Below are positions 26,230 to 32,200 of a stretch of DNA of 64,000 nt, piece after piece. The position numbers and the translations under genes were made by a program. The notes below the pieces were generated by a model. That model saw only the letters and a list, made by a program, of their open reading frames with translations, was not told the origin of the DNA and searched no databases. Source of the stretch: Narcine bancroftii (taxonomy: Eukaryota); the NCBI RefSeq assembly GCF_036971445.1, contig NC_091470.1:155124001-155188000 (forward strand), read 5' to 3'. The stretch's first letter is position 1. Every line of letters starts with the position of its first letter.

Positions 26230-29200
26230 TTAAGGGTCAACAAAAGAGACAGCAATGTATCGTGTTCCACTGGTGGTTGGAAGACCCTCATGGTAATGAG
26301 TCAGTCTTCCTGGGTGCATGAGGGCCCAGCCCTTCCGAGGAGCTTGAATGGAACAGTTATACCTGATAAACCTGCAGCCACCTCCCTGCAAAAGACAGAA
26401 CAACCATCAGCTTTAATAGAAATGTCAATTACTTAAGAACAAATACTGGACATACGTTAATCATATCTAATTGAGACTGGTTATCTGCTAGACTACCCCA
26501 TTTGTAAACAGGATAAGGTAATATAACAAGTATACTAGGATTTATTCCTGCTTTACCATGTTAGGGCAATCAGTCCTATCATACTCTGCAGAAAGAAATG
26601 TGTTAGTCACAGTTTTACATAGACAATTCTGTAGGCTAACACCATATCAGCCAGAATATAATCTGGATGTAGTCTTTCTGCAAGGTCAAATTAAAGAGGA
26701 AACATGGGAAAGTGTATTTTGGGAGATTAAATAAATACAATAAAAAGAAAAGTAATAAATGAACATTCACCATGAACAGAGGCCAGAAGTTATGTTATTT
26801 AGCATTTTCTACAGAATATGCACTGGGGCATGCATGGCTGAAAAGAAGCAGGATCTTGAGTACACTGGTCTAAACCAGAGACAGAGCAGTAATTTCACTC
26901 TCAGTCAAATTTCCCCTTAAATGTAAATCAATTATGTGTTGTCTAATGCTATCAGCATTTATGCCAGTTTTTTGGCAAAATAAAATGTGAAAAAGTTGAT
27001 CAGGCTGCAATTCCCAACCTTTAACTTCCCTATATAGCATCACCCAAGCACAGGAATTTAATTTATTTCCTCTTCACATTTTAGATGCTAGCAACTTACA
27101 AATGGCCAAAATGAACATTCTGCTTGAGAACTCCACTAAGCAATTTACTTATAAATAACTGTCAGGTAAATTATTAAACAGATCAGCATTTTCCAAAGTG
27201 GAGTAGTTATCCTTCAACTTAAAATTATTCTAGTTCACAAACTGGGCCTTTATTTTCTCTGGAGTGAAGACAGACGAGAGGTGACTTAATAGAGGTCTAT
27301 TAAGATTCTGAGAGACATAGATAAGGTGGATAGCCAGCGCCCCTTTCCCAGGGTAGGAATAGCATACACCAGAGGACATCTGTACAAAGTGAAGGGAGGA
27401 AAGTTTAGGGGAGACATCAGATAGGTTTTTTTTAAAATAAAAACAGTGAGTTGTAGATGCCTGGAAAGTCTTAGGAGACTTAGGCACATGGATGAAAGAA
27501 AATCGGAGGGTTACGAGGAAGAAAACGTTTCGGGTTTTTTTTTGGTAGGCATATATAGGTCGGCCCAATATTGAGGGCCAAAGGGCCTGTACAGTGCTGT
27601 AGTGTTCTATAAAGTGAACCTTAACAGTTTTTGCTTTTGCATTTTTGTTTAATCTTCATCTCATATTTTATTGAGATGTTGGTTGTTTGCGTGGTGTAGC
27701 AAGGGTTGTCCCCACTATTTGTCCACAATCATCCCTCAGTTAAATTGGAAAGCAAAATTAGAGGTACCAACATTCAAATAGACAAAACCACTTCAAGGAT
27801 CAGACAGACAGATCTGTTTGTGTCCTTTTTGAAAGGCAAAAGTTAGAGCCCTAATTAGATCAAACAGCAATGAAAACCAGGAATACTTTGTTTTTGTCCT
27901 CACAGTCTATTACATCTTGAAAGAAGTAGTAGGGGATAGTTCATCTAATCAACTTCAGCCTGTTTGTAATATGCTTGGAAATGCAAGATTTGATTAAAAA
28001 AATGTAAAATTAGATGTACAAGGAAATCACTGACTGTATACCTTATCTATTAAGTCACTTCTCATCCTCCTCTGCTCCAGAGAGAAAATAAAGGCCCAGC
28101 TAGTGAACCAGAATAAAAGTAATTTTAATTTTAACTACTCCACTTTGGAAAATGCTGATCTGTTTAATAATTTACTTGTCACTTAAAACTAATTTCTTAA
28201 GTGGAGTTCTCAAGGAGAATGTTCATTTATGCCTTTAATTAAACCACATGTAAATAAGGTCATGGACATAGAGATCACTTTCATAGATAACATTGTGTGA
28301 TAGACCCAAAATCAAAAATCATTATAAGTAACAGGAGTTGTGACTCAGATTACCCTGGCAGAAAAAATGTGATTGTCACAAAACTTATTGCAAATAAATA
28401 TATAAACATTTACCTGGTAAATTCATTATATAGCTTAGATATTAATTAATTAAATAATACAAGACAGAATACAAGTCATAAATAAATTATACAAGGTCTT
28501 ATATAATTCTCAAGAAAAGTGAAAAATCCTTGAGAATTTCACCTCTTATTCTATTACTGAGATATACATTGTGATTATCCAAATAGACCAATCTCTTCTT
28601 GATGAAAATCATTATTAGTGAAACTAGTTGTTCATCACTATAAATCCCTCTGGTGGGCTAACCCAAAATCTCGACTTATCCTTACCTTCCCCAGAGTATT
28701 AAAGACAATCATTAGTTGAATAGTCAAACGTCAGTCTTCAAGGATCATTAATGATTAGATCACCATGCACCTGCTGAATTTGGAACATTCCACATCTCCA
28801 GAAAGTTAAACATGCAAGACCAGAAATAAATAGGAAGAATAAATTTACCACACACTTGAAGATTTTGCAGGGAGCCACTCAGTGAATGTCAGTGTAAGTA
28901 TCAGGGCCATGTATCCAGTTCCAGTGCAAGCTCTCGTAGAACAGCCCACACTCCTGACTGGAGTAGAAACTGAGTCAGATTGGCCCATCCTTAGCCCCCA
29001 ACTTGCAACTTACCTGATAGTCAACTCCAACCTTGTTGAGTGCAATGTTTACAGTAAAAGTGGAAGCATCATGATGAGGCATTAAGGACGGCTGTTCATC
29101 AGGTTTATATCTAACTACAAAGGCCAGGTCAAAGAGTGCCTGCAAGAAAGAAGAGGGGCATGAAGCAATACCATGCAGCATCCATTAAAGAGGAGGCACT

Positions 29201-32200
29201 GGGTAGAGAAAACTAATCCCATCTAATAAAGCCCTGCATTCTCAGGCCATGTCTGCACCTGAGCCTCAGCTACCTCCATTGTCATGACAGCCCAGGCCTT
29301 GCATCTCTCCTGTACCTAGGCTTTAGGTTCTTCCATCATCCCAGGGAATTCTTCCTGCTGTATTCCAGTAAGACTGAACTGGTTTTACCTCATAATCAAC
29401 TCCTGCCTTGTTAAGAGCTACGTTAATAGTGAAGGTTGAGGCATCGTGGTGGGGTTCAAGCGAGGGTTGCTCCTCAGGTTTGTATCTCACTACAAAGTTC
29501 AGAAACGAGTAGGCCTGAGAGCAAAAGTTTAACATGGAAGAAACAAAACCAACATTAGTAACCATGCCAAAAACAATATTCAATTATAACAGTTTATAAT
29601 TAATTTATAATAAGCTTTTAGTGGGTCTTTTCAACTCTTCCTGATCTTTATTCTGCCCCTAATCAATAGTTTTTGATATAATTAGGTATAATACTAAACT
29701 GAAGTAGTCTGACAATTAATTTCTATATTTTCACAAGTATTTTCTTGTCTTTTCTGTTCCATTTCACTAATGTTCTCCTGCTCTCGAGTAAAGTGCAGAA
29801 AATGTGGCAAGCGACAGTCAACTGTGGAAGCATCAGAACCCAGACCAATACACGAGCCAATTATTCAAATATATTATTCATCAGGGCCACGCAGACCAGT
29901 TACACCAGTGGTTCTCAACCTTTTTTCCTCCCACTCATATACCACCTTAAATAATCCCTTACTAACCACAGAGCACCACTGGTCATTCTCCCAACTAAAC
30001 AGGCTTGAAAATTAATCTCCTGATCTGTTCCAGAAAACCAGGAAGAGGAGCCACATAGGCATTAAAATTCCCCCCTCCCCCGCTTCTTTTTTAATATTTG
30101 TTTATTAGTTCTAAAATGTTTGAAGGCTGGGTGAGTTCATTAATGTGATTATGACATTTGATCTGTGAACTTGAGCCTCAACATCGTAGCATGTATCCAC
30201 AGAGAATTAGGGTCACAGGCAGATTGAAAACAGTCATTTTCGTGAGTTGTTAATTATTTCAATAGTCACAGATTTATACTGTAACTAAACACCATTTAAG
30301 TAGAAGGTCAGGAACTCAAACAGATTTAACACATATCTGTAACACTGAACAACCAAACGAACTGCTCACACTAACCATATGAGACTTTCATTTATACAAA
30401 GCAAGATTCATTTATTTATTTTTATAGATGTAATACTTGTCCTGCATATGTTTGTTATGTCTGGTTGTGTGTCTGCATGTTTTGCAATGATGACCAGAGA
30501 ATGCTGTTTTGGTGGGTTGTACTTGTACAATCAGATGACAATAAACTTGACTTGACTATTCTCCAATTCATTCCCTTCATTGCCAACTGCCTCAGTAATT
30601 CCAGGATCTGCTGGAACAAGCACCTCATCACTCATTAACTCAAGAGTTGCAATCACCATGTTTGAAGCTTGGAGCAGGCTATTCATGAAGGATGTTGATG
30701 CTATGTCACCTGTCAAGGTCACTCATTGATCTACATTGCAAGAAGTACTTGCTCCCACATGCTTGCCTACACACCTGCATAGAAATTTAATCACTTAATG
30801 ATGATATTTTTTCCCAGGTGAAACACAACCAGGTTGTTTCATGTTGCTCAAGGGCATTTCTGTGTAAGCATCAGCCTTTAATCTCTGATGTAAATTCCAC
30901 ATCAGAGATGTATGGTCCCCGTCATTCCCTGTTTAATGCTCCTTCTAGATCATTGAGGTGAGGGGAGGCGAGCTTGGACTACATTGACTATATTGTTGGG
31001 CATCTCCGAGACAATTGCCACCTTTGTTAATTAGTCCCAATGAGAGAGTTCATTCTTAAACCCCTCCCCCCATCAAACCACAGCCTTTACCCAACCAATC
31101 TCTACCCCTTTTTATGTAGGGTTTTTTTGAACCTACAATACCCAACTCCTGATCTACCTCTATAATCCACTTGGGGCTTAACAGCCTCAGTCCCCAATTC
31201 CGACCAGTTAACTAATCCTGGGTCAAATTACTCTTCCTACAACACTCACTCCCTTCTGCCCCAACCAGACAAAAGCTTTCAATGTTTCTGCCCAAACCTT
31301 CAGGACTCCACAGCTAAACCCCTGGTATCTTCTCCTCCCATCAGTGTAATAACATAGGCTGCACGCCTTCCAACCTACACCTCAACCATCACGATGACAA
31401 TCCCAGCTGTCACACACTTCCTTTCCTGCCCCTCACATCATCGCAACACACTACGATAGGACCACCCAAATCTAGCCTCAGAACCAGCAACCAAACACCA
31501 TCATTTGGATTAAGAATACTGAGAAGACCAAAGCCGTCTTTGGTTACTGCCACAGCGTAATTTCCCTGTGCAGACTTTAACCCTCAATCAGGTTGAACCA
31601 GAGACATGGCAACCAAGGCATTATTTGATACGAGCTGAACTTTGGATCCTAATTCTACATCTACTTTAACCTCCACAACAGCATACAACTGCTTCTTCCT
31701 CAGCTCTCCTCTTGATAACATATCCACATCTCTAATATTCTGAACGTTCTCTAGGCCAATCTTCCCTTTTTCACTCTTCCACATTTCAACTCTATTCTCC
31801 CATTAGCTATCTGCAGAACTACATTGGCTCCTGATTCATCCAAACTATCAGTTTTAAACCTCAACCTTGACTTAAACCAATGCTGATTTTGTTCCTCCCA
31901 ATTTCCATAACCTCTCCCCACCTACCATCTTTAATCCCAGTGCTGCAATTCTAACCTCTCGTACATTCCTAATTTTTGTGGCAATTGACATTCAGTGATG
32001 GTGTTGGTTTCTGTGTTTGAATGGCTGATATGCCGATGGTTATGTTATCCCAATATTGCAGGAGAAAACAAGTAATGAAGCAAAGTGGACCAGAGCAGGG
32101 GAGTAAACGGACCTTAGTGTAGTAGCCTGGGAAGAACATCTCTGTTAAAGGTGCAATATATTCTCTTAAAAACTTCTGCCACTGTTTCTCATATCCAATC

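Follow-up and report, generated by a model that had tools for sequence, protein, structure and literature searches.

A Tandemly Duplicated HxD Exon of PLOD1 in Fishes, Probably Spliced Mostly as Exclusive Alternatives, Is Predicted To Vary the Collagen-Binding Rim of Lysyl Hydroxylase 1

The 64-kilobase (kb) stretch of DNA analyzed here, referred to below as the window, contains PLOD1 of the electric ray Narcine bancroftii, the gene for lysyl hydroxylase 1 (LH1), in which exon 18 occurs twice. The PLOD1 coding region spans positions 26230 to 52466 on the minus strand and has 19 exon positions, with exon 18 doubled; exons were mapped by tblastn, and orthology was named from protein clusters. 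Most exons of the window are 95 to 100% identical to the RefSeq PLOD1 proteins of Narcine bancroftii. Seventeen exons map upstream of the pair, and the last of them, exon 17 (32113 to 32259), ends in ...GYYTK and is placed both by the exon map and by a spliced joint at 32258-32337. It is followed by exon 18a (29389 to 29514), an intron of 249 nucleotides (nt) (29140 to 29388), exon 18b (29014 to 29139), and the coding part of exon 19 (26230 to 26385), which is common to both isoforms and carries the equivalents of Cys691, His719, and Arg729. The end of exon 17 at 32113 and the start of exon 19 at 26385 in the tblastn map are the same as those given by the original prediction, a reading of the window from its letters. 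Both copies of exon 18 comprise 42 codons and contain the HxD motif. Exon 18a begins with the ancestral-type motif [ST]-[FYP]-L-N-F and ends at a weak donor, GAG/GTAAAA, with A at position +5; exon 18b begins with the derived motif F-[DE]-L-A-F and ends at a consensus donor, CAG/GTAAGT.

The description of two stop-free, phase-0 exons of 126 nt, 249 nt apart, each with AG ahead and GT behind, is exact in the sequence. Our recount also returned the earlier figures of 32 identical residues out of 42, with 18 of those 32 codons synonymously different; at the nucleotide level, 87 of 126 positions are identical (69%). The proportion of nonsynonymous differences (pN) between the copies is 0.16, and that of synonymous differences (pS) is 0.82, which is saturated. 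As had been claimed, the introns around the copies are dissimilar: alignment of the 249-nt flanks is no better than that of shuffled sequences, 23 of 300 shuffles reaching the score upstream and 165 of 300 downstream. Exon 18 has four matches in the Narcine genome (18a, 18b, one PLOD3-like exon, and one PLOD2-like exon), and no third copy or retrocopy was found in this search of its own genome. The divergence of the copies, this search, and the exon tree described below rule out a retrocopy or a recent duplication, and an assembly stutter is ruled out because other fishes have the identical pair in the identical order. The PLOD3-like exon (L003; G000 C5, 194.22 Mb) lies in GC-rich DNA on PLOD1's own contig, 39 Mb away, and the PLOD2-like exon (L004:1501-1626; G000 C21) encodes Arg and Ala at the positions corresponding to R680 and R682 of LH2.

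Which junctions join these exons? Five sequencing runs contain the stretch, none of them recorded as RNA, and four (X1, X3, X4, and X5) were compared, all as assembled contigs, at 85% likeness over 6.8 kb. Runs X1, X3, and X4 belong to one study and may come from the window's own specimen, whereas X5 comes from another organism and another study. Spliced joints with GT-AG ends were present in the contigs between exons 16 and 17 in three of the four runs and between exons 17 and 18a in all four, that is, in two studies. Because 143 further joints, owing to intron repeats, were not listed, the remaining junctions were deduced from contig ends. These imply 17-18b in X3, X4, and X5; 18a-19 in X3 and X4; and 18b-19 in X1 and X3.

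Contig ends were then compared with a k=31 graph simulation of nine transcript sets under four intron settings each. The break points of such a graph reveal which junctions exist because GC is the first dinucleotide of both exons and the three routes into exon 19 have different last letters (GAG, TCAG, and GCAG). In the simulation, only sets that hold both transcripts with 18a alone (a-only) and transcripts with 18b alone (b-only) reproduced the contig ends of X3 and X4, whether or not transcripts that include both exons (a+b) were added. Those of X5 fit only a-only plus b-only transcripts, with read-through after 18a and without a+b; the sole entry into the 18b contig of this run is exon 17, and it has no a+b path. 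The contig ends of X1 were not decisive. A path from exon 17 directly to exon 19, skipping both exons, was incompatible with where the exon 17 contigs end in X3, X4, and X5, in assemblies that drop rare forms. Each exon is thus spliced singly between exons 17 and 19, with 17-18a listed and 17-18b, 18a-19, and 18b-19 deduced from contig ends, and the pair is likely mostly exclusive with some leak into a+b. With regard to the junctions named by the original prediction, 17-18a is seen directly in every run, the other three single-exon junctions are known through the deduction, and no path through 18a-18b was found in X5, the one run in which this junction could be judged.

To follow the pair through other species we used a protein sample consisting of the best 120 rows each of 213, 624, and 1,883 matches plus cluster members (at most 15 listed per cluster), 445 proteins in all. 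The species tally was drawn from the named records among the first 421 proteins and covers 174 species; in it, "not seen" means not present in annotation records or cluster representatives, which is not proof of absence. The tally left out unnamed records, PLOD3, invertebrate proteins, and some named b-type models (e.g., Nothobranchius, Puntigrus, and Danionella), and its lobe-finned group is made up of coelacanth, lungfish, amphibians, reptiles, birds, and mammals. An a-type exon was recorded for 20 of the 22 cartilaginous and 44 of the 80 ray-finned species and for none of the 72 lobe-finned species; the corresponding numbers for a b-type exon were 17, 62, and 72. The a-type exon is open and conserved in 64 species records. 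The search for 18a in relatives, in protein records, therefore succeeded among cartilaginous and ray-finned fishes and not among the lobe-finned group, and the earlier statement that mammalian PLOD1 has a single such exon agrees with all mammalian and other tetrapod proteins seen, each of which has one exon, of b type. Both copies occur in chimaera, sharks, rays, bichir, sturgeon, gar, bowfin, and teleosts, and a teleost contig (L008) carries both exons in the same order as in the ray with a 245-nt intron between them. Records beyond the tally add a-type forms in bowfin, Astyanax, and Salminus, and show only b in seven cypriniform species, two mormyrids, two knifefishes, and milkfish. The seven cypriniform b-only proteins are P0157, P0206, P0213, P0214, P0216, P0423, and P0424, two of which are single RefSeq models; killifish records likewise show only b. 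The order to which zebrafish belongs may have lost 18a, and from the distribution of records we infer that 18a was lost several times.

A tree of 51 exon peptides (42 columns, with rough support values) placed the b exons of sharks, ray-finned fishes, and tetrapods on one side of a branch (97/95) and set a and b together against PLOD2, PLOD3, and invertebrate exons (99/97). The a exons were left unresolved within it, and their monophyly was not rejected (P = 0.42 in the approximately unbiased test). The presence of the pair in cartilaginous and ray-finned fishes, together with this grouping, indicates that the exon 18 duplication is older than the split between cartilaginous and bony fishes. 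Between ray and teleost, pN and pS are 0.20 and 0.62 for 18a and 0.07 and 0.83 for 18b, so that pN is below pS for each copy and 18a evolves about three times faster than 18b. Within 20 cartilaginous species, 33 of the 42 positions of 18a are invariant. Both copies are constrained, 18b more tightly than 18a. Tree, ray-teleost comparison, and invariant sites are all in keeping with the earlier suggestion of an old duplication with both copies under purifying selection. No synonymous constraint was seen overall in 18a or 18b (ray-teleost pS of 0.62 to 0.83).

We then asked which residues differ between the two protein forms. Position n of the exon corresponds to residue 645+n of LH3, an offset verified on structure 8ZGC. 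In LH3 numbering, PMC6082870 gives His667 and Asp669 as iron ligands, Tyr656 as part of the 2-oxoglutarate pocket, and Thr672 and Phe673 as a dimer pocket. All five residues are invariant in the 215 exons tallied (64 a and 151 b), and the iron triad HxD...H is present with either exon, as are Tyr656, Cys691, and Arg729. In LH2, arginines R680 and R682 confer telopeptide activity, and charge near the site sets specificity (PMC8055892); at the corresponding positions both copies, like every one of the 215 exon records, have Glu and Pro. Since both forms are without the two LH2 arginines, telopeptide activity is not predicted for either, and neither is predicted to be an LH2-type telopeptide hydroxylase. 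Because the catalytic, dimer-pocket, and LH2 specificity positions are identical, the catalytic pocket is not switched between the forms. The original prediction of an active-site switch with different catalytic pockets was overstated in this respect, the differences falling at the rim.

These differences are concentrated at the start of the exon. In 18b, Phe648, Asp/Glu649, and Ala651 (exon positions 3, 4, and 6) are fixed in 151 of 151 exons, and the resulting F-[DE]-L-A-F start is common to all tetrapod PLOD1 seen. At the same three positions, 18a has Ser/Thr (one Asn), mostly an aromatic residue or Pro, and Asn (63 of 64 a exons); Asn651 also occurs in all paralogues shown, namely, seven teleost PLOD3, eight invertebrate, and two ray exons (PLOD2-like and PLOD3-like). 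Residues 665 and 681 to 683 are likewise type specific. The last Lys of exon 17, directly ahead of the varied residues, aligns with K804 of mimivirus L230. This residue lies in the cleft between subunits and is required for collagen binding; its replacement (K804E) lowers activity on collagen and not on a short peptide (PMC5802723). Residues 640 to 650 belong to a mobile loop that makes up part of the dimer interface (PMC9453210). The a/b differences are thus predicted to sit at a collagen-binding rim and not in the active site. By analogy with the charge rule for LH2, an acidic residue at 649 could favor basic helical sites, for example the KGH motifs of cross-link sites (bioRxiv 2019.12.16.877852). 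In the 6AX6 alignment, mimivirus L230 has Ala at the Asn651 position, as does 18b, so Asn651 is not needed for activity. A structure model of the a-only form draws two strands within the exon (651 to 658 and 677 to 683), and an a+b model (a bichir fragment) has a mean predicted local distance difference test (pLDDT) score of 45.5 and is uninformative.

The splice signals around the pair were examined for possible control of the choice. The intron between 18a and 18b is kept short (249 nt in the ray, 245 nt in the teleost contig, and 219 to 267 nt in six read-through open reading frames [ORFs]), compared with 2.6 kb on either side in the ray. It has no AG-exclusion zone ahead of 18b, with 22 AGs in 250 nt and the nearest at -61; the teleost intron is also AG rich. 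The only branch-like site in the ray intron lies at -46 nt from the 18b acceptor. A steric lock with a distant branch point, as in OGDH, is unsupported given this AG-rich intron and the closeness of the branch-like site to the acceptor. A frameshift lock acting through nonsense-mediated decay is equally unsupported, both exons being 126 nt and phase 0; as the original prediction stated, co-inclusion keeps the frame, and it escapes nonsense decay for that reason. The donors are not of U12 type, as judged against the commonly given consensus, leaving a minor-spliceosome lock unsupported as well. The donors of the two exons differ in strength: the weak A at +5 is implied by 28 of 29 read-throughs after a-type exons, and a strong G at +5 fits 50 of 50 read-throughs after b-type exons.

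UGCAUG binds RBFOX and represses a downstream exon. A TGCATG element of this type lies at 29172 to 29177, 38 to 33 nt ahead of the 18b acceptor in the ray, and at 32 to 27 nt in the teleost contig, a match within 6 nt that arose by coincidence in 5 of 2,000 shuffle pairs. Translations compatible with TGCATG, in all three frames, occur 9 to 14 codons ahead of 18b in 11 of 20 fish ORFs and 0 of 15 tetrapod-type ORFs and ahead of 18a in 0 of 14 ORFs. The conserved weak donor of 18a combined with UGCAUG ahead of 18b suggests RBFOX control of exon choice, to which we give about an even chance on the basis of these motifs. Two more TGCATG copies lie at 28769 and 28816, 198 and 245 nt downstream of 18b, in a gene total of nine in 26 kb. 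No general intron conservation was detected between ray and teleost (the three alignment scores were matched by 331, 87, and 69 of 500 shuffles). RNA pairing between exons and introns was also sought: positions 26386 to 32112 contain 85 inverted pairs, and among the 25 listed none is long near a splice site, the long pair among them being a repeat pair inside intron 18b. In run X1 only, T>C clusters (A>G on the transcribed strand) at 27189 to 27255 and 28145 to 28183 fall on the arms of a 105-nt inverted repeat in intron 18b, and they are candidates for adenosine-to-inosine editing, showing the pattern expected of it. Outside PLOD1, the window has GC-rich stretches at 20001 to 22000 (GC 0.57) and 62001 to 64000 (GC 0.50).

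We consider it reasonably probable that a mostly exclusive exon pair yields two forms of LH1 that share their catalytic core and differ at the rim. PLOD1 exon 18 would have been tandemly duplicated before cartilaginous and bony fishes separated, and 18a and 18b would be spliced mostly as alternatives, one gene giving two LH1 forms that share their catalytic residues. The two forms would differ in their grip on collagen. The changed segment would tune substrate-site preference or affinity, because it follows the cleft Lys and belongs to the 640-650 dimer-interface loop. Exon 18b would be the specialized LH1 form, kept alone by lobe-finned vertebrates, and 18a would be an accessory form, closer to LH3, that disappeared on several occasions. 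Less firmly, the choice may be made by competition between the weak 18a donor and the strong 18b donor, with the RBFOX site repressing 18b. Transcripts with a+b would be a minor leak, which would persist because nothing removes them.

Several observations weigh against this explanation. On the splicing side, the 143 unlisted joints could include 18a-18b in X1, X3, and X4, where it is uncheckable, and rare forms are lost from contigs. Among cartilaginous species 9 of 22, and among ray-finned species 18 of 80, have an automated a+b model (27 of 102 fish), Narcine bancroftii itself being one of them. On the protein side, the best-known specificity positions (those of LH2 R680 and R682) are the same, E and P, in 18a and 18b, and the a-only structure model, with a mean pLDDT of 73.7, falls below 50 across the exon and gives no reliable orientation for residues 648 to 651. 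Exon 18a also seems dispensable, given no a-type record in 72 lobe-finned or 7 cypriniform species and only b in mormyrid and knifefish records. As for the RBFOX element, a shared hexamer of any kind stands at a matching position in 1,380 of 2,000 shuffled intron pairs, and TGCATG was chosen after five motifs had been tried; the fish ORFs with TGCATG-compatible translations are related to one another, and the ORF groups were assigned by exon sequence.

The alternative that survives best accepts that the exons are exclusive and holds that both enzymes hydroxylate the same sites. The rim would then tune dimer stability, iron sensitivity, temperature range, or helper binding, or 18a would be kept by ordinary selection against a broken enzyme and lost when its splice sites decay. 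The sharing of all catalytic and known specificity residues is in line with this, as are the position of the varied segment in a loop contributing to the dimer interface and the threefold faster evolution of 18a with its apparent loss in several lineages. LH1 site choice in mice, moreover, depends on P3H3 and cyclophilin B, according to bioRxiv 2019.12.16.877852. Against it stand the fixed residues, F3, D/E4, and A6 in 151 of 151 b exons and N6 in 63 of 64 a exons. They have been held for some 450 million years, as this divergence is usually dated, and redundant copies would be more likely to drift together or to vanish early. We regard equivalence of the two enzymes as somewhat unlikely.

Could a+b instead be a real, regulated third product? 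Its 42-residue repeat would weaken or disable hydroxylation and leave the N-terminal domains and dimerization, so that the protein would act as a brake. The a+b models in more than a quarter of the fish species, often named isoform X1, the kept frame with its consequent escape from nonsense decay, and the lack of either an AG-exclusion zone or a distant branch point to block the 18a-18b splice would all allow this. However, the 18b contig of X5 is entered only from exon 17, a+b as the only or main form misfits X3, X4, and X5, and skate, chimaera, and sawshark records have only single-exon forms. In 13 of 22 cartilaginous species, an a-only model and a b-only model stand side by side. The longest automated model receives the name X1 regardless of abundance. 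As the longest, the a+b model is often both isoform X1 and cluster representative (P0004, P0005, P0007, P0010, and similar), and databases may thus show a minor a+b form as the reference PLOD1 protein. A regulated a+b product is quite improbable in our view. The mutual exclusivity put forward by the original prediction holds for the single use of each exon, on the evidence of the 17-18a joint and the contig-end simulation, and is doubtful in its strictness, in view of the a+b models and the lack of a frame or steric lock.

A reading of 18a as decaying, unexpressed, or an artifact of assembly, at which its weak donor and apparent loss in several lineages might hint, is extremely improbable and already refuted for cartilaginous fishes, as the original prediction had held: 18a is spliced in all four runs, conserved and open in 64 species records, and found in the same order in teleost DNA, the copies being only 69% identical in DNA.

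Within the preferred explanation of two forms with one core and two rims, a bolder version would have the duplication itself make LH1. The Phe/acidic/Ala cleft mouth of 18b would have given the preference for helical cross-link lysines, 18a would keep the older LH3-like mouth, sharks and many bony fishes would still switch between them by tissue under RBFOX, and lobe-finned vertebrates would have kept the derived exon alone. We consider this version unlikely; if it were true, a six-residue natural swap would be the long-sought determinant of LH1 site specificity.

The pair is real, ancient, and expressed, and it is present in automated annotation and was not found in print. No paper describing it turned up among the literature matches listed (the best 20 to 40 of a search where there were more), outside of which lay most subscription journals, and it is not described in the available parts of PMC7538616, PMC13322528, and PMC13382579. 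The claim that the pair is undescribed for PLOD1 accordingly stands for print, as far as this was searched, and fails for databases, where automated X1 to X3 models in RefSeq and UniRef already cover the a, b, and a+b isoforms. In their 2007 work on zebrafish lh1 and lh2, Schneider and Granato reportedly found an alternative exon only for lh2. The seeming lack of 18a in the zebrafish's order, together with its lack in mammals, would explain how the pair went unnoticed, and human-based catalogues overlook exon pairs that disappeared along the line leading to tetrapods. In work on fishes, primers and models designed for a single exon 18 overlook an isoform. What directs LH1, LH2, and LH3 to different collagen lysines is understood only in part; for LH2, two arginines account for the choice, and we know of no comparable determinant for LH1. 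The pair offers a natural experiment, in that the two enzymes differ in a single exon, which carries the tetrapod LH1 motif in one of them and the LH2/LH3/invertebrate motif in the other, and the question of LH1 specificity is directly testable with these two natural isoforms.

Among known structures, human LH1, LH3, and L230 (6FXK, 8ZGC, and 6AX6) resemble both forms in having the DSBH domain, His667/Asp669/His719, Tyr656, Cys691, Arg729, and the Thr672/Phe673 pocket. Exon 18b has the tetrapod LH1 sequence, tetrapod records having a single exon 18, whereas 18a, unlike human LH1, combines PLOD1 ancestry with an LH3-like L-N-F start. As in LH2a/LH2b (PLOD2 exon 13A), alternative splicing would diversify a lysyl hydroxylase, although PLOD2 13A, in contrast to 18a/18b, is a nonhomologous cassette in an accessory domain. 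In FGFR2, UGCAUG between or near two homologous exons (IIIb and IIIc) is said to favor the upstream exon and repress the downstream one through RBFOX2; the PLOD1 site, by comparison, is known only as a conserved motif. The LH2 determinant R680/R682, which directs substrate choice by charge, lies in the counterpart of this same exon (PMC8055892).

OGDH exons 4a and 4b form, like the PLOD1 pair, an old homologous pair with an intron of restricted length, and unlike it they combine a long AG-exclusion zone with branch points close to the upstream donor (PMC7969005). An invertebrate-type PLOD contig has a tandem HxD exon copy of its own (L011:1827-1955 and 2005-2130; 129 and 126 nt), both of Asn type, the upstream one with Arg at the position like R680 of LH2. 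In its 49-nt intron, a TACTAAT branch-like site lies at a distance of 25 nt from the donor and could act as a steric lock, and the duplication looks independent of that in fish PLOD1.

The closest parallel is in the prolyl 4-hydroxylases. The original prediction had pointed to mutually exclusive exons in P4HA1, and supplementary tables do list them: PMC4494069 (supplement file 2) gives homologous mutually exclusive exons for P4HA1 and P4HA2, of jawed-vertebrate origin and kept in gar, zebrafish, fugu, and coelacanth, and the supplement of PMC8373072 lists the P4HA1 pair and dates the event to Bilateria. No PLOD gene appears in the mutually exclusive exon tables of these two sources, as far as these were available, both of which start from human genes. 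Like PLOD1, P4HA1 and P4HA2 encode collagen-modifying iron/2-oxoglutarate dioxygenases, and inside each gene lies an old pair of homologous exons used as alternatives. Their pairs persist in humans, and the P4HA1 exon spans 24 residues without an HxD motif, whereas in PLOD1 the duplicated unit is an entire HxD exon of 42 residues, of which all lobe-finned records seen lack one copy.

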